Part shown: positions 30,205 through 40,335 of the stretch, piece after piece
Layout of the letters: each line of letters begins with the position of its first letter
How positions within the stretch are numbered: position 1 is the first letter of the stretch
DNA from: Candidatus Dormiibacterota bacterium
GTDB lineage: Bacteria > Chloroflexota > Dormibacteria > CF-121
Direction of reading: 5' to 3'
Assembly (NCBI GenBank): GCA_035947855.1
Contig: DASZJR010000147.1
Location: forward strand, 1 to 46,868
Length of the DNA stretch: 46,868 nucleotides
Made by a program: the position numbers and the translations under genes
The notes under the pieces: model-generated
What the model saw: only the letters and a program-made list of their open reading frames with translations
What the model was told of the DNA's origin: nothing
The model's database searches: none

Positions 30205-30705
30205 ATGACAGCAGTGCGGCGCCTGGCAGCGGGCGGTCTGGCAAGCCTGCTGGCGCTCGCCTTGACCCTCCCGGCCTACGCGGCCACCAAGCCATCCAAG
30301 CCCACGCGACCGGCTGCGCCCGCCCCGGCCCGGCCGACCGCGATCCTTCCGCCGCTCGTCTTCCAGCTCAACCCGGTCAAGGTCAACCCGACCGTATTGC
30401 CGAACGTCATGATCCTCGGCCAACACCTGACCCCTGGGACCACCGTGCAGGTCGGCGGCCGGCCCGCGACCACCGTCCAGGTTCCCGACGCGAATCACCT
30501 CCTCATGAAACTGCCCGAGAACCTGTCGCAGGGTACCTATTTAGTCGCGGTGACAAACGAAGCGGGTACCACGTTGGCGAGTGACGAGCTCGTGATCGAC
30601 GACCCCTCGCAGCGCCCGAGCACGATGATGATGCTCGTCGGCGGCGGCTTGCTCCTCCTCCTCCTGCTCGTCATGCGGCTCGCCCGGACACCGGGCCTCG
30701 CCTAG
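30205..30705 (+). CDS. secreted IPT/TIG-domain protein with a C-terminal hydrophobic anchor
   Basis: Track ORF trimmed to MTAVRRLAAGGLASLLALALTLPAYA (signal peptide). Ig-like NPVKVNPTV...GQHLTPGTTVQVGG...GTYLVAVTNEAG. C-terminal MMMLVGGGLLLLLLLVMRLAR. Confidence 0.7.
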   Translation: MTAVRRLAAGGLASLLALALTLPAYAATKPSKPTRPAAPAPARPTAILPPLVFQLNPVKVNPTVLPNVMILGQHLTPGTTVQVGGRPATTVQVPDANHLLMKLPENLSQGTYLVAVTNEAGTTLASDELVIDDPSQRPSTMMMLVGGGLLLLLLLVMRLARTPGLA

Positions 30706-31802
30706 CGCGAGATCAAGAGTTGCAGGTCGGGCTCCTGGACCTGGTCGAGTTCCGCCTCCGGTGCCAACCCCGCCTGCGGCACCGCGCGCAGGGCCGCCAG
30801 CGCGCCCCGCATCTGTCCCAGGTTGCGCTTGGCTTCGGTAAAGGCGTTCTGGATCATGGTGCTGCCCCGCGCGATGTTGTTCTCGAGGAGGCGGTCGAGC
30901 GACGCGACGTTGTCGTCGATTTGCTGCAAGTAGCCTTCGAGGTTCTCGAGGTCGATCGACTTGGCGTACTGCAGGTGCAGGCGGAAGAGCGCCAACACAT
31001 AGGGGATCGTCATGCTGTAAGGCATCAGGATCACGCCTTCGCGATACGCCTCGAGGTGCGCACGGCGGCAGGCATTGAAGACCGGGTCGGGAACGGCAGC
31101 AAGCGCGAAGCCAAGCGTCGCCCCGGGGTCGATGTACTGCTTGACTTCTCTGACCTTCAGGCGAAGGACCCGCTCGATTTCCTGGACGATCGTTGCCTCT
31201 TTCCCCGGTTCCTGCAAGCCATCGTTGAGCCGGTCCAGCAACTCGGGAGACGGCCATTTGCTGTCGATCGGTAGTCGCTTGCCGTTCGCGAGGATGAGCG
31301 CGTACTCGACGACCTTGCCGTTGACGCGGAAGTTCATGTCGATCATCTCGGCAGGGAACTGGCGGAACGCATCCTGCAGGATGTTCTCGCCAGCGGCACC
31401 GCGGGTGCGGCTGCCCAGCAGGACGGTCTCGATCCGCCGGGCTGAAGCCTGGACGTCTTCTTCCATGCGGCGGCGCTCCTCCGCGTCGACCTTCAAACGC
31501 TCCATGGCGAGGCGCGCCTCGGACAGGTCTTTGCCGATCGCGTCTCGAACCCCGGCCGAGCTCTCGAGGACCTTGGACTCGACGCCCTGAACCGCCGTCT
31601 GCACCATGCCGAGCGACTGGCTCAGCGCGCTCTGCTGATTGCTCACCGCCTCGACATTCGACTTGAGCGCTCCCAGGTCCGTCAGCGCCGCGAGCACCGC
31701 ATCCGATGGACCGGTCGCGGCCGGCCGCCGGAGCAGCAGGGCGACCAGGCAGAGCAGGGTGGCCACCAGCAGAACCACGAGGACCAGTTCGAGGACGTTC
31801 AC
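30702..31802 (-). CDS. rmuC: DNA recombination protein RmuC
   Basis: N-terminal TM helix, long coiled coil, and a nuclease-like core (VEYALILANGKRLPIDSKWP). GTG start preceded by AAGGAG. Confidence 0.85.
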   Translation of the reverse strand: MNVLELVLVVLLVATLLCLVALLLRRPAATGPSDAVLAALTDLGALKSNVEAVSNQQSALSQSLGMVQTAVQGVESKVLESSAGVRDAIGKDLSEARLAMERLKVDAEERRRMEEDVQASARRIETVLLGSRTRGAAGENILQDAFRQFPAEMIDMNFRVNGKVVEYALILANGKRLPIDSKWPSPELLDRLNDGLQEPGKEATIVQEIERVLRLKVREVKQYIDPGATLGFALAAVPDPVFNACRRAHLEAYREGVILMPYSMTIPYVLALFRLHLQYAKSIDLENLEGYLQQIDDNVASLDRLLENNIARGSTMIQNAFTEAKRNLGQMRGALAALRAVPQAGLAPEAELDQVQEPDLQLLISR

Positions 31803-31922: not shown

Positions 31923-32243
31923 TTATTTATCGACGGGGTAGCCGCGCTCGATCCAGGCGGCAGTGCCGCCGTCGACGTTGCTGACCGAGGCGTAGCCGAG
32001 TTGCTGCAGGTAGCCGGCGGCCGCCAGGCTCCGCTGCCCGCTGTGGCAGATGGCCAGGACCGGCCGGTCGCGGGGCACCTCGCTGACCCGCTGCTCCAGC
32101 TCACCCAACGGGATCAACTGGGCGCCGGGGACGTGGCCCTGCTGGTACTCCCAGGGTTCCCGGACATCGAGCAGGAATGGCGCCGGCTGGGCCTTGAGTC
32201 GCTCGCGCAACTGAGTGACGTCGATGCCGGGGACGGGAGCCAT
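31923..32243 (-). CDS. single-domain rhodanese-like sulfurtransferase
   Basis: Track ORF trimmed to MAPVPGIDV. LLDVREPWEYQQGHVPGA and the active-site loop AICHSGQRS. Confidence 0.85.
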   Translation of the reverse strand: MAPVPGIDVTQLRERLKAQPAPFLLDVREPWEYQQGHVPGAQLIPLGELEQRVSEVPRDRPVLAICHSGQRSLAAAGYLQQLGYASVSNVDGGTAAWIERGYPVDK

Positions 32244-32304
32244 CGGGAAAATCTTAGTCGCCGGAGCGCAAGCTTCACCGGCCACCCGGCGTCGTTTTCA
32301 CAGC

Positions 32305-33051
32305 GTGAGCAAGGGCCAGCAATACCTGCAGTTCTTCGGCTCGGACGCGCTCAAGCGGCTGCACGGCTGCGCGATCGCCGAAGCCGATCGGGGCGCCGAC
32401 AGCCCCTGCGCCGGCCTGGCTGAGCCGCTCCGCCGGCCGCAGATCGGGTTTGGAAACCCGCACGCACCGATCGTCTTCCTCAGCCCCAGCCCGCTGGATG
32501 CCGCCAGCGCCAGTAACGAGGCCTTCAGCGAGTGGCTCGATCACGAAGCCGGGCTCGAACACCACATGACGTCGGACACGCCGCAGCCCTACTACCAGTA
32601 CGTGCGGGCCGTGCTGCTCGGCGCGCGCCGCCGGCTCGGGCAGAAACCGGAGAAGCATGACGGGCTGGACCTCGCGTTCCACACCTGGGCGGTGCGTTGC
32701 TCGACGGCAAACCCCGACCTGGTGACCGACGAGGCCTTGAACCAGTGCGTCGACCGCCACCTGCACAGCCTGTTGGAGAGCATCAACCCGCAGCTCGTCG
32801 TTGCCATGGGCGGCCCGGTCGCTCGCCACCTCTGGTGGCGGACGATGCAAACCTGGGATGGATGGGGTCGGATGACCAGCCTGCATGGCCGTGTGCTCGA
32901 TGTGCAGCTGGGCAATCGAACCGTACCGGCCATCCTGAGCGTGCACCCCTTCCAGCGCGGCGTCGAGCTGCATCCGGAAGTCATCGGGCGCGCCATCGGT
33001 GACCGCTTACGGCCGGAGCAATTCGCTCCGCAGGAGTTGAAGGCCGCATGA
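32305..33051 (+). CDS. uracil-DNA-glycosylase-superfamily protein with a non-canonical motif A
   Basis: Collinear with family-4 UDG as I recall it. GFGNPHAPIVFLSPSPLD stands where family-4 UDGs have GEGNPxAxxMxVGExPG. VVAMGGPVARHL. HPF where family-4 UDGs have HPS/HPA. The start is uncertain (GTG 32305 chosen; track ORF begins at 32215). Confidence 0.6.
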   Translation: MSKGQQYLQFFGSDALKRLHGCAIAEADRGADSPCAGLAEPLRRPQIGFGNPHAPIVFLSPSPLDAASASNEAFSEWLDHEAGLEHHMTSDTPQPYYQYVRAVLLGARRRLGQKPEKHDGLDLAFHTWAVRCSTANPDLVTDEALNQCVDRHLHSLLESINPQLVVAMGGPVARHLWWRTMQTWDGWGRMTSLHGRVLDVQLGNRTVPAILSVHPFQRGVELHPEVIGRAIGDRLRPEQFAPQELKAA

Positions 33052-34501: not shown

Positions 34502-35464
34502 CTATTTGTTGCGCGCTGCCATTTTCGTGCCTATGCCGCTGATCTTCTTGCGCAGGTCCGCGGGCGCCAGGACCTCGACCGCGTCGCCCCATCCCAGGAT
34601 CCACGGGGTGATCTCGACGGTGCCAGTCACGGTGACTGTCATGTTGACCGAACCCTTCGGCCCATCGCTGAGCGCCTGCGATGGATGCCAGATGGATTCC
34701 TTCACCCGTGCCGCCGCCGGCGGATAGAAGCGCATGCGCACCGCGACCGGCTCGCCGGAGTGGAAGATTCCCCAGGCGCCCGCCAGGTATTTGTTGACAT
34801 CGAACTCCTCCGGGATCTGATAGGTCTCCGGCATTTGCTCGGCCCGCGTGATGCGTTCCAGCTTGAATGTCCGCATCTCCTTCAATCCGCGATCGCGCGC
34901 CACTACGTAGCTGCTGTGACCGATCAGGGAGGGCTCCAGGAAATAGGGCTCGATCACGCGGGGCTTGACCTCGTGATTCGCCGTCGGGTACCAGATGCGG
35001 ACTGCCCTGTGCCCCGCCCAGCTGAGCGCGACCGTCTGGAGTACCCGCGAGTAGATGGGATTCGACGGACGATCGGCCATCTGACGAACCGTGGCGTGAA
35101 CATACTCTGCGACGGGGGCCGGTAACACGGCTGCCAGCTTGGTGAAGGCGTCGGCCACGTCGGGATCGGCCTGGTCGCGATGGCGGTGCATCAAGCGAAC
35201 ACCCATCAACAGCGCCATCGCCTCGCGCAGGGTGAACTTCACGGGAGCCACGAAGTAGTTCGGGTCGATCGCGAACCGCCCGCTGTCCTCGTAGACGGGC
35301 ACGTTCATCGCTTCGAGCGCCTTGATGTCGCGATAGGTGGTCCGCGGGTTCACGCCGGTGCGGCGCGCGATCTCGCCTGTCGCCAAACCGTGGGGATTGC
35401 CCTGGAGCAGCGTCTGGATCTTCAAGATCCGCGCCCCACGATCCCCCTTCTCGAACGAGCCCAC
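34502..35464 (-). CDS. WYL-domain transcriptional regulator (HTH - WYL - WCX architecture, PafBC-like)
   Basis: RILKIQTLLQGNPHGLATGEIARRTGVNPRTTYRDIKALEAMNVPV (HTH_11-like). VRIWYPT...RVIEPYFLE...YVVARDRGLKEMRTFKLERI (WYL). Track ORF trimmed to GTG 35464 because the upstream codons have low GC3. Confidence 0.85.
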   Translation of the reverse strand: MGSFEKGDRGARILKIQTLLQGNPHGLATGEIARRTGVNPRTTYRDIKALEAMNVPVYEDSGRFAIDPNYFVAPVKFTLREAMALLMGVRLMHRHRDQADPDVADAFTKLAAVLPAPVAEYVHATVRQMADRPSNPIYSRVLQTVALSWAGHRAVRIWYPTANHEVKPRVIEPYFLEPSLIGHSSYVVARDRGLKEMRTFKLERITRAEQMPETYQIPEEFDVNKYLAGAWGIFHSGEPVAVRMRFYPPAAARVKESIWHPSQALSDGPKGSVNMTVTVTGTVEITPWILGWGDAVEVLAPADLRKKISGIGTKMAARNK

Positions 35465-35532
35465 TTCGCCGTCCAGTCTAGGCCCAGTTATCGCCACGCC
35501 GGTTGCTTGCGAAACAAATTCAGCCCAACCTT

Positions 35533-35538
35533 TATAAT
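35533..35538 (+). promoter_or_regulatory. perfect TATAAT -10 hexamer in the WYL/sbcD-like divergent spacer
   Basis: cctTTATAATggg, 65 nt upstream of the GTG at 35604. No convincing -35 at 17 nt (TTGCGA at 20 nt). Confidence 0.35.
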
Positions 35539-35603
35539 GGGCACGCTTTCGCGCCCGCTTATGCCATCGCGCCAGGCACAATTCGCGTGGTTACGGGGGA
35601 TTT

Positions 35604-36698
35604 GTGGCCCTTCGCCTGCTCCATTTCGCTGACCTGCATCTCGACCGGTCCTTCGCGAGTGAGCGCCTCTACGGCGTCGGGGCGCAACGACGCCGCGAGG
35701 ATCTTCGCGCCGCCCTCCAACGGATCATCGAGCGGGCCAAAGCGGCCCAGGCCGACCTGATCACCTGCGGTGGCGATCTCTTCGAGCACGATCACGTGAC
35801 CCGCGAAACGGCAAGCTTCGTCGTGCAAACCCTGGGTGATGCCCGCTTGCCGGTCCTGATCGCGCCCGGCCACGCGGATCCGGCATTGCCGAGCTCACCC
35901 TACCGGTACCTGCGCTGGCCGGAAAATGTCACGGTGGCGGCCCATGAGGATCTTCGACCCTACCGCTATGGGGACGTCAACATCTGGGCCGCCGGCTTCA
36001 TGCGCCCCGACGTGGCAGAGGCCGCTTTGCGTGATTTCCCACGGCGCGAGGCCGGCACGCATCTGCTGCTGCTGCACGCGTCAGATATGAGCGCGGTGCC
36101 AGAGGGCGTGACGCCCTATAAACCCATCCTGCCCGCCCAGGTCGAGGAGGCCGGCTTTCGTCACGCCCTCCTTGGCCATTATCACGACGGCACAACCGCC
36201 GAGTCGATCACCTATCCCGGCAGCCCGGAGCCTCTCGGCTGGAACGAATCCGGCCGTCACTGCACCGCGCTGCTGACGGTCGACGATAACGGCGACCTGC
36301 AGGTGTTGCTGGAAGATATCAACCTACGGCAGTTCGCCCAGGAGACGATCGACGTCACCGGGATGACCGGCCTCGAGCAGGTCCGCGACGCGGTGATGGC
36401 GATGCGGGAGGAGAGGCAGCTCAATGGCGGCGTCATCCGCGCCACGCTGGTCGGTGAACGCGACCACCGGCTGACCCTGGATCCGCAGACGCTGGCAACC
36501 GAGTGCAGCGATGGCTTCGCCTATCTCGAGTTCCGTGACCACTCGCGGATGTCGCACGACCTCGAGGCCGCCGCCCAGGAGTTCACCAGCCGGGGCGAGA
36601 TGGTGCGCAAGCTGGTTGACCACAAGCAGGGGTCTCGCCAGGAGGAAGAGGCGGTGGGCCGCGCCTTGCAGCTCGCACTCGACGCCTTCGACGAATGA
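35604..36698 (+). CDS. Mre11/SbcD-like metallophosphoesterase (YhaO-like DNA repair exonuclease)
   Basis: LRLLHFADLHLD, CGGDLFEH, LLLHAS and LLGHYH calcineurin-like phosphoesterase motifs. GTG start. Confidence 0.85.
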   Translation: MALRLLHFADLHLDRSFASERLYGVGAQRRREDLRAALQRIIERAKAAQADLITCGGDLFEHDHVTRETASFVVQTLGDARLPVLIAPGHADPALPSSPYRYLRWPENVTVAAHEDLRPYRYGDVNIWAAGFMRPDVAEAALRDFPRREAGTHLLLLHASDMSAVPEGVTPYKPILPAQVEEAGFRHALLGHYHDGTTAESITYPGSPEPLGWNESGRHCTALLTVDDNGDLQVLLEDINLRQFAQETIDVTGMTGLEQVRDAVMAMREERQLNGGVIRATLVGERDHRLTLDPQTLATECSDGFAYLEFRDHSRMSHDLEAAAQEFTSRGEMVRKLVDHKQGSRQEEEAVGRALQLALDAFDE

Positions 36699-36714
36699 CG
36701 CCGATGAGTCCGCC

Positions 36715-39700
36715 GTGCAGTTAACCCGAATCGAGATCGAGGGCTTCGGCAGCCTTCAGGGGATGGATCTACGTTTCGGTCCCACGATGAACGTGGTCGT
36801 CGGGCCAAATGAGGCTGGAAAATCCACCCTGCAGGAGGCGATCGTGACCGGCCTCTACGGGCTGCAGTCGGGCGATCGAGCGCGCTCAGCGCTGGTGGAG
36901 CGCGCCGACCGGTGGCGCCCCTGGCAAGGCGGCAACTTCGGGCTGGCGCTGGAGGTCGTCCTGGAGGATGGGACTCAGCTGCGCATCGAGCGCGACCTCG
37001 ACGCCGAGACGGTTCGCGTCTTCGACATGAGCACGGGCGCGGAGCTGGGCGACCGCTTCGAGCGGGATGCCTCGGGCGGATTGCAGGTCGGACGCCAGTT
37101 GCTCGGCGTCAGCCGCGATATCTACACCAACACGGCGTGTATCTCGCGCAGCGAAGTGCTGCGCCTGGAAGACGCTGGCACGATCAAGGAGGCGATCGTC
37201 GCCCTCGCGGACTCGGCGCACCCCGACCGGACGGCGCAGAAAGTGCTCGATCGCCTCCGCCAGGAGCGGACCCATCGGATCGGCAAGCCGCGCGGGCGCA
37301 CCGGCCCACTGCACGATCTCGAGGCTCGCCTGACCGAGCTGGAGCGACAGCTTGCGGCCGCCCGCCAGGCACGAGCCGCCGTCGACGAGCTGGCGCAGAA
37401 GCGAGAGACCGTTTCGGCACTGACCGAGGCCGAGCTGGGGATCGTCCAAACGCTCGAGGCGGCCCTGCTCGCCTCCCGCCTACAGGATGCGCGTCACCGG
37501 TTGGAGCGGGTCGACACGCTCGATCACGCGCTCGCCGAGGAACGCGCCCGTCAAGAGGAGCACACCCGTTTCGCGATGTTTCCCCTCGACCGCCAGGCGG
37601 AGGTGCAGGAACTGCGGAGCCACCTGCGCGCATCGAGGGAGACGCAGGCGGACTTCGAAGGCCGGGCGGCGGACACGAGTGCGCAGGTGCAGCAGCTCGA
37701 GGCGGAGCGCCAGAAGCTCGATGCCGAGGCCCAGGGCCACGAAACGCGAGCCCGCGGCATCGACGAGGCGGCGCTCGGCAACGAGCCCGCCGTCCGGGAG
37801 CTCCTTTCCACACTCAACGTCGCCGACACCCAGGCGCCCGAGGTCCACCTCCGGGCCCAGGCCGCGGCGGAGGAGGCTCGGCGGATCGCGGAGCGGCACC
37901 CGGGCCTGATCGGGAACAACCTCGACTGGCCCGCCCGTCAGATGGAATTCCAGCGCGTCTTCTCGGAATGGCACGAGCGCCACAACGTCGCGCTCGAGGC
38001 ACGCCGCCGGGCGGGCGCCGAGCTGCCGCCGCGCCTGGAGCAGCTCAAACACGACATCGCCCGCTACAAAGAAGTCCCCGACGTCATCAAGAACGGTCAG
38101 CAGGCCGAGGAATCGATGCGACGCGAGGAGGCGATGGCCGAGCGCGCCCGAAGCCGGCAGCGCACCTTCCTGGGGGCATTGCTGGGTGGGCTGCTGCTCA
38201 CCGCCATGGCCATTTTGGTTGCCTTCCTCGCCTTGCAAGGGGGCATGCCCCTTCCACTCAGCGGGGCGGCCTTCTTCCTCCTTGGCATGGGTGTCCTGTC
38301 CACCGGCATCGGCATCTGGGTGCGCGGCGCCGCCGTTCGCGAGGTCGATCGCCGGCTCCGCGCCAAGGACGAGGCGCGGGTCAAGCGTCGCGAGATCCTC
38401 CAGCCCTGGGGCGTCCGAAGCTCGGCGGAACTGCAGCAGGCCCTGGTCGAGCACTTGCAGAAGGTCCGCTACGACGCCACACGTCTCGAGCTCGACCGCC
38501 AGGCCACCGAGTTGGAGGAACGCGCGCAAGTGGCCGGGCGCAGCCTGCGCGAGCTGGTCGGATCGTGGGGACTTCCGCAGCCCGCGCCGACCGAGGAGGC
38601 CGTCGACGGGGTCGCCCGCGAGGTCGAATCACTGTCGCAGGACACGCTCGCCTGGAACGCTGCCAGCGAGCGATCGCAGGACGCATCCCGCGCGGAATCC
38701 GAAATGGATCAGCGGCGGGAGTCCCTGCGCCAGCGGCTGCACAGCCTGCTCGACCAGTTGGGGTTCGACCGACGCGAGGCGCTCGGTGCCGCCCGCGATT
38801 TCATTGCGAGTTGCGAGGCCGCACGCACGGCGCAACAGGTCCGCACCAGGATCGAGCAACTCGACGCCCAGCTGGAGCAACTTCGAGCGCCTGGCCAGCG
38901 ATCGGTCGCCGAGCGCGCCAAGGCCGACGATTACGCTCGTCAGCTGGCCGCCGTCTATGCGCCGGCCGGCATCGCCGAGACCGATATGGAGCGCGCGGCC
39001 CAGGCCTGGGACGCTGGAGTCGGCCACGCGGAGGCGTACCGCGCGTCGAGCGCGAGGCTCACCGAGTTGGAGGGCCAGCGGGGCACCGCGCCCAACGACG
39101 AAGGCGCATCGCTCCGCCAGCTGGTCGATGACCTGGCTCGTCAGATTAGCGAGGTCAGCCGGGGCGTCGACGCGGCTGCGGTGGCGGAGTTCGCCGCGCT
39201 GCCGCTGGCCGAGCTCGAACGGCAGCGCGACCAGCACCGTAGCAGCAAGGAGCGAGCCCAGGAAGAACGGGCACGGGCGGAGGAGCTCTTGAACGACCGG
39301 CTCACCCAGACCGGAGACGTCGCCTCGCTCGAAGAGGAGATCGCGACCGCCCGCGAGCAGCTCCAGGAACTGGAAGCCGAGGCCCATGCCTACGACCTCG
39401 CCATCGAAACGCTCGAAGCGGCGGCCAAGTCGGTCCGCAGGGCCGTCATCCCGCGGCTCAAGTCGCAACTCCAGGGCCAGCTCTCCCCGATCACGAACGG
39501 TCGCTACCGTGATGTCCGCATCGGCGACGACCTGGCGCTGCAGGTACGAACCCAGGATCAGCGCACCTATAAAGATGTCGACAACCTCAGTCTCGGCACC
39601 CGTTCGCTGATCTACCTGCTCGAACGGCTGGCGCTGGCGCGGATCATCGGGGGGAACGCAGAGCCCCCTCCCCTCCTCCTCGACGAGGCGCTGGTGCACG

Positions 39701-39924
39701 CCGATCGTCGCCGCCTGAGCGCCGCGATGAACGAATTGGGCCGGCTCGACCACCAGGTCATCCTCTTCTCGAAGGACGAGGCGATCGCCGAACGCGCCGA
39801 GAAGGGTGACGACTGGACCATCATCCGGCTCCCCGGCCCGGCCCTCGTCGCGGCGTCCGCCGAGGAGGCGCGGGCCAACGGGTCAGCCAACCCGGACCAG
39901 GTCGAAGAAGAAGTCACCACTTAA
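36715..39924 (+). CDS. Rad50/SbcC-like AAA ATPase (YhaN-like) with a central two-helix membrane hairpin
   Basis: Track ORF 36511..39924 trimmed to GTG 36715 (VQLTRIEIEGFGSL). Walker A GPNEAGKST, signature LSLGTRS, Walker B LLLDEALVHAD. Long heptad-rich arms. Hydrophobic helices are encoded at ~38164-38325. Confidence 0.88.
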   Translation: MQLTRIEIEGFGSLQGMDLRFGPTMNVVVGPNEAGKSTLQEAIVTGLYGLQSGDRARSALVERADRWRPWQGGNFGLALEVVLEDGTQLRIERDLDAETVRVFDMSTGAELGDRFERDASGGLQVGRQLLGVSRDIYTNTACISRSEVLRLEDAGTIKEAIVALADSAHPDRTAQKVLDRLRQERTHRIGKPRGRTGPLHDLEARLTELERQLAAARQARAAVDELAQKRETVSALTEAELGIVQTLEAALLASRLQDARHRLERVDTLDHALAEERARQEEHTRFAMFPLDRQAEVQELRSHLRASRETQADFEGRAADTSAQVQQLEAERQKLDAEAQGHETRARGIDEAALGNEPAVRELLSTLNVADTQAPEVHLRAQAAAEEARRIAERHPGLIGNNLDWPARQMEFQRVFSEWHERHNVALEARRRAGAELPPRLEQLKHDIARYKEVPDVIKNGQQAEESMRREEAMAERARSRQRTFLGALLGGLLLTAMAILVAFLALQGGMPLPLSGAAFFLLGMGVLSTGIGIWVRGAAVREVDRRLRAKDEARVKRREILQPWGVRSSAELQQALVEHLQKVRYDATRLELDRQATELEERAQVAGRSLRELVGSWGLPQPAPTEEAVDGVAREVESLSQDTLAWNAASERSQDASRAESEMDQRRESLRQRLHSLLDQLGFDRREALGAARDFIASCEAARTAQQVRTRIEQLDAQLEQLRAPGQRSVAERAKADDYARQLAAVYAPAGIAETDMERAAQAWDAGVGHAEAYRASSARLTELEGQRGTAPNDEGASLRQLVDDLARQISEVSRGVDAAAVAEFAALPLAELERQRDQHRSSKERAQEERARAEELLNDRLTQTGDVASLEEEIATAREQLQELEAEAHAYDLAIETLEAAAKSVRRAVIPRLKSQLQGQLSPITNGRYRDVRIGDDLALQVRTQDQRTYKDVDNLSLGTRSLIYLLERLALARIIGGNAEPPPLLLDEALVHADRRRLSAAMNELGRLDHQVILFSKDEAIAERAEKGDDWTIIRLPGPALVAASAEEARANGSANPDQVEEEVTT

Positions 39925-39996: not shown

Positions 39997-40335
39997 ATGG
40001 GCAATGTCATTCCGTGGTCACAGATCCATCCGAGCATTACAAGTGAAGAGCCCTTTGTCGCGGTCGTCGTCATCGATCCCCAGCGCCAGATTTGCGTCAG
40101 CGAGATGGTCGCGTTCGAGCCAGAAGCGCTCAACAGCGCGGACGTCGCGGCCGCGGAGCTGATCGCGGCCGCCCAGGCGGCCGCGACGAAAGTCGCCAGC
40201 GGCTACCGGGTACGCCGCACGCAAGCCGCCCCCTCCGTGAAGGATTCAAGCGCCCCCACGCCGACCCTCCCCCGCCAGCGGGGGAGGGAAAATCCGCACG
40301 CAGGCCTGCGGGTGCTGAAAGGCGGGAAAAGCTAG
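39997..40335 (+). CDS. hypothetical protein (C-terminus runs through REP copy B)
   Basis: 112-aa ORF with high GC3 in the central part. No recognisable family and a weak SD. The last ~27 codons are repeat-derived. Confidence 0.4.
   Translation: MGNVIPWSQIHPSITSEEPFVAVVVIDPQRQICVSEMVAFEPEALNSADVAAAELIAAAQAAATKVASGYRVRRTQAAPSVKDSSAPTPTLPRQRGRENPHAGLRVLKGGKS
40253..40295 (+). repeat. REP-like hairpin element, copy B (perfect 11-bp stem)
   Basis: cccccacgccgaccctcccccgccagcgggggagggaaaatcc. Stem ccctcccccgc / gcgggggaggg, 2-nt loop. Confidence 0.7.

Follow-up and report, generated by a model that had tools for sequence, protein, structure and literature searches.

We analysed a stretch of DNA of 46,868 nucleotides (contig DASZJR010000147.1; the window in the following) from a soil bacterium of the Dormibacterota, which carries a gene pair of the SbcEF (YhaO/YhaN) type together with a divergent WYL gene. 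The latter (positions 34502-35464, minus strand, GTG start) encodes a helix-turn-helix (HTH)-WYL-WCX transcription regulator of 320 amino acids (aa), as identified by Pfam. It is separated by a divergent intergenic control region of 139 bp (35465-35603), which we aligned over 54 unique relatives, from the gene of an Mre11/SbcD-like (YhaO/SbcF-type) calcineurin-like phosphoesterase (35604-36698, plus strand; 364 aa; Pfam Metallophos). The TGA stop codon of this gene is followed after a gap of 16 nt by the GTG start codon of a YhaN/SbcE-type Rad50/SMC-like ATPase (36715-39924, plus strand; 1069 aa), assigned by Pfam, AlphaFold2 and Foldseek. An original prediction had seen in this locus a possible membrane-tethered complex for the processing of DNA ends, for repair or against foreign DNA, under WYL control. 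Its coordinates, gene identities, spacer, TATAAT hexamer and protein motifs all held when compared with the open reading frames (ORFs), the Pfam matches and the sequence itself.

The ATPase and its hydrophobic apex

The ATPase gave Pfam matches to AAA_23 (56.9 bits), AAA_27 (39.4 bits, cut-off 22) and SMC_N, and the SbcC_Walker_B profile, spanning aa 932-1006, remained slightly under its cut-off of 27 with 24.2 bits. The matches in the PDB were head domains of Rad50. The Rad50 equivalog level was not reached, with NCBIfam Rad50 models scoring 20-34 bits at cut-offs of 700-1087. Close homologues are labelled 'uncharacterized protein YhaN' by IMG, and PF13514 was precomputed on all close and distant homologues. 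The proposal that yhaO-yhaN (sbcEF) is the nearest named pair is supported by these names and by the profile comparison against AAA_27/YhaN, SbcC and Rad50, in which AAA_27 was above its cut-off and the Rad50 equivalogs were far below theirs.

Walker A, signature and Walker B motifs are all intact. In the Walker A motif GPNEAGKST (aa 30-38; 36802-36828, plus strand) the residues N32, E33 and K36 are invariant in 95 family members at 20-34% identity. For the ABC signature-like LSLGTRS (aa 958-964; 39586-39606, plus strand) S959 is invariant, and G961 and T962 occur in at least 90% of the 95 members. P986, D990 and D997 of the Walker B/D-loop segment PLLLDEALVHAD (aa 986-997, with LLLDEALVHAD at 987-997; 39670-39705, plus strand) are nearly invariant. 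An AlphaFold2 model of the monomer obtained with 26 homologues (mean predicted local distance difference test score, pLDDT, 73; predicted template modelling score, pTM, 0.32) is helical nearly without break from aa 198 to 926. In Foldseek it aligns over the full length with Smc5/6, condensin, SMC, MukB, JetC and Rad50; no structure of the YhaN/SbcE family surfaced in the PDB in sequence and fold searches. Because the C-terminal arm (C-arm) exceeds the N-terminal arm (N-arm) by ~100 aa, it must accommodate something additional, for example a bulge, elbow or fold-back.

The centre of the ATPase is formed by a two-helix hydrophobic hairpin (38164-38325, plus strand), which is seen in the Kyte-Doolittle hydropathy profile as well as in the AlphaFold2 model. 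It comprises two putative transmembrane (TM) helices, TM1 (aa 484-507) and TM2 (aa ~515-537), that are connected by a turn at aa ~509-514 (GGMPLPLS). Within the whole ATPase, aa 482-538 are the sole region with a Kyte-Doolittle value above 1.4 for 19-residue windows (maximum 2.61; best value elsewhere 1.12). The protein contains no CxxC, its only Cys residues being located at positions 142 and 700. The hydropathy profile and the Cys positions therefore bear out the two hydrophobic helices at aa 484-537 and the absence of a CxxC hook. In the AlphaFold2 model a helix (454-508), a five-residue turn (509-513) and a second helix (514-565) follow each other. Since the hydrophobic helices directly continue the arms, the turn represents the apex. 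It is found at 0.48 of the protein length (511/1069), the same relative place as the CPLC of E. coli SbcC (506/1048).

The hairpin has positive-inside flanks, with RARSRQR before TM1 and R537 followed by RRLRAKDEARVKRRE after TM2. From 26 sequences of the window clade (61-93% identity) we obtained mean column identities of 0.86 for TM1, 0.83 for TM2 and 0.56 for the turn, which in the window protein carries PLPL. The arms reached overall ~0.79-0.80, the coiled coil flanking the TM helices (45-60 residues) 0.90-0.91 and the C-terminal head 0.90. Both helices possess conserved faces of small residues (LGGLLL and FLLGMG). From conservation and flanks we infer a hairpin that would leave both arms in the cytoplasm and allow helix-helix packing in the membrane.

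To see how general the apex is, we searched 1.84 billion cluster representatives with HMMER and obtained 9,824 relatives of the ATPase at E <= 1e-3 and 5,013 at E <= 1e-10. Among the best 150 relatives, 123 were full length (>=600 aa; 24-38% identity). A 19-residue window with a Kyte-Doolittle value of at least 1.6 was present in 100 of these 123 proteins, and in 98 it was found at a relative position of 0.4-0.6; a central CxxC occurred in none. A genome scan with one genome per GTDB species provided 80 loci from about 8 phyla: Bacillota (Clostridia, Brevibacillus, Paenibacillus), Actinomycetota, Chloroflexota, Dormibacterota, Eremiobacterota, Armatimonadota, Binatia, Desulfuromonadales and a 'Mollicutes' metagenome-assembled genome (MAG). 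Nearly all complete ORFs of these loci (~73/76) have a hydrophobic centre with values of 1.8-3.4 at 0.44-0.63 of their length, which in the AT-rich Clostridia consists of Ile/Leu/Phe runs typical of TM helices. The same centre was seen in 114 of 119 additional members of PF13514, some of them from Myxococcota and Limnochordales. The neighbour immediately 5' of the ATPase gene is SbcD-like in 71 of the 80 loci, and the two genes often overlap by 4 nt. Given its presence in 98/123 relatives, in nearly all ORFs of the 80 loci and in 114/119 further proteins, the hairpin in place of the hook is, as judged from sequence, a signature of the whole YhaN/SbcE family (PF13514, COG4717) and not peculiar to the window locus.

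Several members depart from this pattern. The 25 of the 123 representatives without hydrophobic centre (P0159, P0162, P0182, P0188, P0190, P0212 and others) are mostly 912-979 aa or ~1283 aa long, and in P0182 and P0188 the midpoint is occupied by an amphipathic segment rich in Arg and Trp. The giant relatives P0152 (2198 aa) and P0195 (2177 aa), in which the hydrophobic segment is located at about one third of the length and CxxC pairs occur close to the C-terminus, probably represent a YhaN-like protein fused to another large module. In 14 gut 'uncultured Clostridia' genomes (L012, L015, L019, L021-L023, L025, L026, L029, L030, L033, L036, L041 and L053) the gene of a type IV coupling protein (T4SS-DNA_transf, TraG-D_C, TrwB_AAD_bind; e.g. 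L021:3266-4792) directly precedes, in the same orientation, the SbcD-like gene and a short YhaN-like gene (~620-690 aa). A membrane DNA translocase thus adjoins the membrane-apex pair in those Clostridia, and an unassigned ORF of ~160 aa often precedes the coupling gene.

The window pair shares several features with SbcE-SbcF (YhaN-YhaO) of B. subtilis (Krishnamurthy et al. 2009, PMC2811018): the head is of the AAA_27 type, the arms measure ~300 aa, CxxC is lacking, the centre is hydrophobic and bears Pro, an sbcD-like gene lies directly upstream and the location is chromosomal. The 'unique central domain' of SbcE, which is hydrophobic in its first half and contains a conserved Pro, was wholly insoluble in E. 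coli (PMC2811018). The apex, as the headline feature, belongs to the family as a whole and has been on record, under other terms, since 2009. Of the membrane apex put forward for the window locus, the hydrophobic hairpin itself was retained, while its distinctiveness was not, since the hairpin is family-wide and a hydrophobic, insoluble domain had been reported earlier.

One may also imagine that the hydrophobic helices do not span a membrane and form a buried cytoplasmic four-helix 'hinge' that dimerises the arms, which we regard as quite improbable. This picture would agree with the wording of the B. subtilis study, which speaks of a central domain and not of a membrane anchor, and with the foci of SbcE fused to yellow fluorescent protein, which were found on nucleoids and shifted between the poles within minutes, an unusual behaviour for an integral membrane protein (PMC2811018). 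It agrees poorly with segments of ~23 and 19-21 aa, Kyte-Doolittle values of up to 2.6-3.4, the short Pro/Gly turn, the flanking Arg/Lys clusters and the TM-like runs in Clostridia. The full insolubility of the domain also speaks for the membrane, as does a localisation predictor that calls YhaN a membrane protein: S. haemolyticus YhaN was listed as such in a surface-proteome study (PMC7137321).

The SbcD-like subunit and its motif III

The phosphoesterase matched Pfam Metallophos with 30.3 bits and TIGR00619 sbcd with 44.2 bits (cut-off 77.65); Mre11_Halo was below cut-off as well. The protein is similar to solved SbcD structures. It contains the motifs HFADLHLD, GGDLFEH and LLGHYH, and its gene is preceded by a Shine-Dalgarno (SD) sequence GGGGGA at 35595-35600. 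The 74 aligned SbcD-like partners show no variation in motifs I (D-x-H), II (GD), IV (H) and V (GH-x-H), all of which the window protein has too. A different picture is found for motif III, where the region APGHADPA (aa 87-94; 35862-35885, plus strand) carries GHAD for GNHD, such that H90 and A91 align with N83 and H84 of E. coli SbcD (LAGNHDSV); Ala stands in place of the catalytic His and His in place of the metal-binding Asn. For the family motif G-N-H-D, the 74 partners have N in 65 and H in 69 cases, and GNHD occurs in ~90% of the wider family.

Within the window clade the His is consistently replaced: its position is occupied by A in 65, T in 2 and S in 1 of the members and never by H (68/68), and the Asn position by H in 59 and N in 9, resulting in the variants GHAD, GNAD and GHTD. 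Motif III is likewise without His in L001 and L002. The WYL-linked clade and the His-less clade are the same clade, and other Dormibacterota loci (L007, L013, L034, L039) have GNHD and no WYL gene. We take the motif III His to be the residue that is changed in standard nuclease-dead SbcD and Mre11 alleles. The replacement is fixed while purifying selection acts on the remainder of the protein, and we therefore do not regard the SbcD-like gene as a pseudogene. From the alignment, a reduced or modified nuclease activity is probable for the window clade; the motif III variant is a previously unreported, lineage-specific feature. Concerning the proposed DNA-end processing, an Mre11-like subunit is indeed paired with the ATPase, whereas the catalytic His of motif III is missing from this subunit.

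These data raise the possibility of a nuclease-attenuated membrane tether or sensor, whose SbcD-like subunit lost catalysis and which clamps broken ends, incoming DNA or chromosomal loci rather than resecting them. The motif G[HN][ATS]D in 68/68 clade members as well as in L001 and L002, compared with GNHD in ~90% of the family, and the alignment of the lost His with H84 of E. coli SbcD are in line with such a tether, as are the complete set of ATPase motifs and the high conservation of the TM and juxtamembrane regions. On the other side, the four remaining motifs (I, II, IV and V) are complete, and the His found at the Asn position in most members might substitute for the lost one. We consider a pure tether rather unlikely; it overlaps with the explanation that we prefer, a repair-type SbcEF complex, rather than excluding it.

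The comparison with E. coli SbcCD and Rad50-Mre11 can be drawn at this point. Head, antiparallel coiled coil and apex are shared, and the nuclease gene precedes the ATPase gene in either case. The window pair differs by its hydrophobic hairpin in place of the Zn hook, by GHAD instead of GNHD and by scores that fall well short of the Rad50 and SbcD equivalog cut-offs.

The divergent regulator and its control region

The regulator gave Pfam matches to HTH_11 (33.6 bits), WYL (40.5 bits) and WCX (61 bits), each over the cut-off. Its nearest PDB entries in a phmmer search were DriD (8tp8, E 7e-13) and PafC (7p5x, E 6e-9), with PafB also detected, which supports a WYL regulator of the DriD/PafC type. 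It is not PafBC proper: it is encoded by a single gene and scored 21.9 bits with HTH_PafC, under the cut-off of 32. The regulator also matches the first 313 of the 1009 positions of the PADLOC 'Cas3c' profile (E 4e-78), and several homologues are named 'Cas3' by IMG. Some Cas3 proteins evidently bear a very similar N-terminal HTH-WYL-WCX module, which leads to the misannotation of stand-alone regulators.

To quantify the linkage we collected 82 loci carrying the regulator (83-98% identical, from soil metagenomes). A divergent SbcD-like neighbour was found in 74 of them; 7 others end within 200 bp of the regulator, and the remaining locus, L087, also has an SbcD-like gene by eye, such that the linkage amounts to ~75/75 informative loci of the clade. 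Outside the clade a WYL gene was present at 0 of 78 loci. A phmmer search of all ORFs of the 80 loci returned only the window and L001, and when the 124 largest ORFs located up to 2.6 kb upstream of SbcD-like genes were scanned with Pfam, WYL was not among the families seen at least twice. The WYL linkage is confined to this Dormibacterota clade; the co-occurrence that had been proposed for a survey is tight here and absent elsewhere.

The spacer lengths among relatives range from 114 to 150 bp and differ by non-multiples of three. The regulator therefore starts at 35464, and gene models of ~348 aa are ~28 codons too long. Many pipelines call the WYL gene too long in this way, into the promoter region (35465-35581; proteins P0271-P0346).

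The spacer has a GC content of 56.8%, compared with 66.1% for the window. In the spacer alignment the -10 hexamer TATAAT of the sbcD-like/yhaN-like operon (35533-35538, plus strand) is invariant in 54/54 sequences, including L001, whose ATPase is 73% identical. There is no -35 element: the hexamer at 17-bp spacing is CGAAAC, and a sigma-70 scan gave no full promoter. A conserved box GGAAyAAAyTCAGCC (35502-35526, plus strand), a candidate WYL operator, forms part of an imperfect inverted repeat GCTGAtT-N-AyTCAGC; the box is centred near -27 and ends 9 nt upstream of the -10 hexamer. It was found once in the 46.9-kb window at up to 1 mismatch, with other matches at chance level. Since the box occurs only once, the regulator looks local within the 47 kb. 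For the WYL gene itself, TAGACT (35476-35481, minus strand) is a candidate -10 element, at which the conserved block CAGTcTAGG adjoins the WYL start. The leader of the operon is strongly conserved, with the SD sequence GGGGGA. A structured 5' untranslated region or riboswitch was considered for this leader and dismissed, with no Rfam match at E <= 1 and a fold z-score of +0.33.

The regulator shares the HTH-WYL-WCX architecture with DriD of C. crescentus and PafBC of mycobacteria, and its target promoter, with a good -10, no -35 and a box ~7-9 nt upstream of the -10, resembles PafBC promoters in geometry. PafBC promoters have the form tTGTCRgtg-N8-TAnnnT, with a '-26 motif' and sigma adaptation (PMC5656591, PMC11804915), and both DriD and PafC are activated by single-stranded DNA (ssDNA; PMC11804915). 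The window regulator differs by being a single gene product, presumably a homodimer like DriD and not a PafB/PafC heterodimer, by the sequence of its box and by its apparently local range; activation by ssDNA would hold for it by analogy. Given a promoter geometry like that of PafBC and best structural relatives that are activated by ssDNA, we favour the regulator as probably being an ssDNA-dependent activator of the -35-less promoter.

We also looked for other damage-responsive boxes. The PafBC P1 motif was absent upstream of the sbcD-like genes of 74 loci at up to 1 mismatch. An exact LexA-type (Cheo) box GAAC-N4-GTTC was found only in L007 (0.18 expected), a Dormibacterota genome without WYL neighbour, where GAACTGACGTTC precedes the SbcD-like ORF by 46 nt (L007:4813-4824 region). 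The form CGAAC-N4-GTTCG with one mismatch occurs in L008, L034, L039 and L048 (Dormibacterota, Eremiobacterota and Chloroflexota/Chloroflexia). These boxes hint, in a suggestive but weak manner, that the damage regulator to which the pair is coupled differs from lineage to lineage. In B. subtilis yhaONM belongs to the LexA regulon. Compared with yhaON, the window locus has no yhaM-like gene downstream, and its nuclease subunit lacks the motif III His. No WYL gene adjoins the B. subtilis pair, for which control by ComA was reported (PMC2811018), in contrast to the divergent WYL gene of the window.

A further case may be provided by mycobacteria. MSMEG_5004 and Rv1277/Rv1278 are presumably the mycobacterial SbcD-like/YhaN-like pair, with Rv1278 probably being a YhaN-type protein with a hydrophobic centre. 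The literature on Rv1277/Rv1278 contained indirect mentions only. The M. smegmatis operon headed by MSMEG_5004 is listed with a PafBC P1 motif (PMC5656591 Table S1), MSMEG_5004 has been termed a dsDNA exonuclease (PMC11551767), and the downstream product MSMEG_5002 was down two-fold in a pafBC mutant. With an SbcD-like gene heading an operon with a PafBC P1 promoter, mycobacteria would add an independent example of WYL control, though by a global regulator that is encoded far away.

Genomic setting and proposed role

On one side the locus is flanked by genes for gamma-glutamyltranspeptidase, RmuC, a rhodanese, a uracil-DNA glycosylase (UDG)-superfamily protein, a short-chain dehydrogenase/reductase and a cupin, and on the other side by GNAT, DUF2269 and DUF885 genes, all of which are ordinary chromosomal genes. 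The gene order RmuC-rhodanese-...-WYL-phosphoesterase-ATPase-GNAT-DUF2269-DUF885 recurs in MAG contigs of Dormibacterota and Limnocylindrales at an ATPase identity of 68-73%, and the order of these housekeeping neighbours is conserved over relatives spanning 68-98% identity. The GC profile of the window revealed no island at the locus, and tblastn searches of 72,556 plasmids and 50,697 phage records returned no relative. The locus is a core, vertically inherited one, given the conserved synteny, the normal GC content, the lack of plasmid and phage relatives and the lack of a fitting PADLOC model; we reject its reading as a defence island.

The RmuC-family gene (30702-31802, minus strand), the rhodanese gene (31923-32285, minus strand) and the UDG-superfamily gene (32215-33051, plus strand) are further DNA-metabolism genes in this conserved neighbourhood, with RmuC and rhodanese holding the same position in L001. 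Directly 3' of the ATPase gene lies an ORF of 112 aa (39997-40335, plus strand) without Pfam match; a called gene of 90 aa is found at the same place in L001 (11282-11554).

An action against foreign DNA, which had been offered as an option, would correspond to an anti-phage or anti-plasmid system in which a CapW/BrxR-like WYL repressor frees a membrane-bound nuclease complex upon infection. HTH-WYL-WCX regulators do govern defence islands, and CapW/BrxR sense ssDNA (PMC11662680). The window regulator resembles them in architecture and in its position beside the controlled operon, its box occurs once in the window as for a local regulator, and in PADLOC it matches CRISPR-associated WYL profiles in addition to the WYL-like N-terminus of 'Cas3c'. 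The ATPase gave weak partial matches to LmuB and mad3. These matches cover head or coiled-coil parts only (56 bits), however, and the phosphoesterase gave none. Furthermore, CapW/BrxR act on CBASS and BREX in variable islands, unlike the present core repair-type pair, whose neighbours are housekeeping genes in conserved order at normal GC content and whose homologues are chromosomal, spread over ~8 phyla and missing from the plasmid and phage records searched. We thus hold a defence function to be very unlikely, and the suggested option found no support. Known defence systems were also rejected as such, with only partial (mad3, LmuB) or P-loop-only (GajA, PtuA) matches in PADLOC-DB v2.

We assign a probability of about 90% to the window pair being an SbcEF-family complex with a membrane apex. 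Most likely, and by analogy with the known systems, it is a repair-type complex that is induced by DNA damage and represents a lineage variant of a known family. The following mechanism can be envisaged, which as a whole we consider somewhat better than an even bet. The hairpin would insert into the cytoplasmic membrane, leaving both arms on the cytoplasmic side, with the turn of 6-8 residues pointing outward. Two hairpins would probably pack via their conserved Gly-rich faces (LGGLLL, FLLGMG) and dimerise the arms in the membrane, standing in for the Zn hook. The heads and the SbcD-like dimer would be held up to ~45 nm from the membrane, where they might clamp onto DNA ends or onto DNA that enters there. 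Upon damage, ssDNA would bind to the divergent HTH-WYL-WCX protein, in analogy to DriD and PafBC, and the ssDNA-bound protein, acting from the box near -27, would bring RNA polymerase to the promoter that lacks a -35. With the motif III His being replaced in the clade, tethering or clamping may outweigh resection. B. subtilis SbcE functions in double-strand-break repair and transformation, binds SbcF and forms ComK-dependent polar foci with the DNA-uptake machinery (PMC2811018); heads that bind DNA near the membrane would fit these roles.

A number of observations weigh against this picture. Membrane insertion is predicted by hydropathy alone, and the AlphaFold2 model is of moderate quality, with a pLDDT of 61-77 at the hairpin and a pTM of 0.32. 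In this model the arms are unequal, with ~311 aa for the N-arm (198-508) and ~413 aa for the C-arm (514-926), owing to which the turn lies ~50 aa ahead of the exact midpoint between the heads; the claim that the hairpin sits at the arm midpoint is thus met in relative length and missed by these ~50 aa. A direct similarity to B. subtilis was not recovered with the Brevibacillus (L044) query, which returned only Brevibacillus, Paenibacillus and metagenome proteins and not B. subtilis YhaN. A fully active Mre11-type nuclease is called into question by the incomplete canonical five-motif set, in which the catalytic His of motif III is absent. As to the induction by damage, the window locus contains no LexA or PafBC box, and an operator overlapping the -35 position may also fit a repressor of the CapW/BrxR type.

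In its widest form the proposal would be that an ancestral SbcEF was rewired: the clade gained a dedicated ssDNA-sensing WYL activator and lost the catalytic His, resulting in a damage-induced, largely non-nucleolytic tether of broken or incoming DNA at the membrane, with the hairpin being a general replacement of the Zn hook across thousands of bacterial proteins. We put this forward tentatively and regard it as doubtful in its entirety.

What is new at this locus is the lineage-specific WYL regulator with its activator-type promoter and the lineage-specific loss of the catalytic His. This added value is modest, and the call for attention concerns the whole family: the YhaN/SbcE family is very large and present in many phyla, yet it is covered by essentially one functional paper in the searchable literature. 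The locus provides a case of WYL-based, LexA-independent control outside Actinobacteria and Proteobacteria, and its natural motif III variant could separate the tethering from the nuclease role. The accumulation of SbcE at the DNA-uptake pole of B. subtilis could be accounted for by a membrane apex. Rad50-like arms that meet in the membrane would furthermore bear on how SMC-like arms work without a hook or a hinge.

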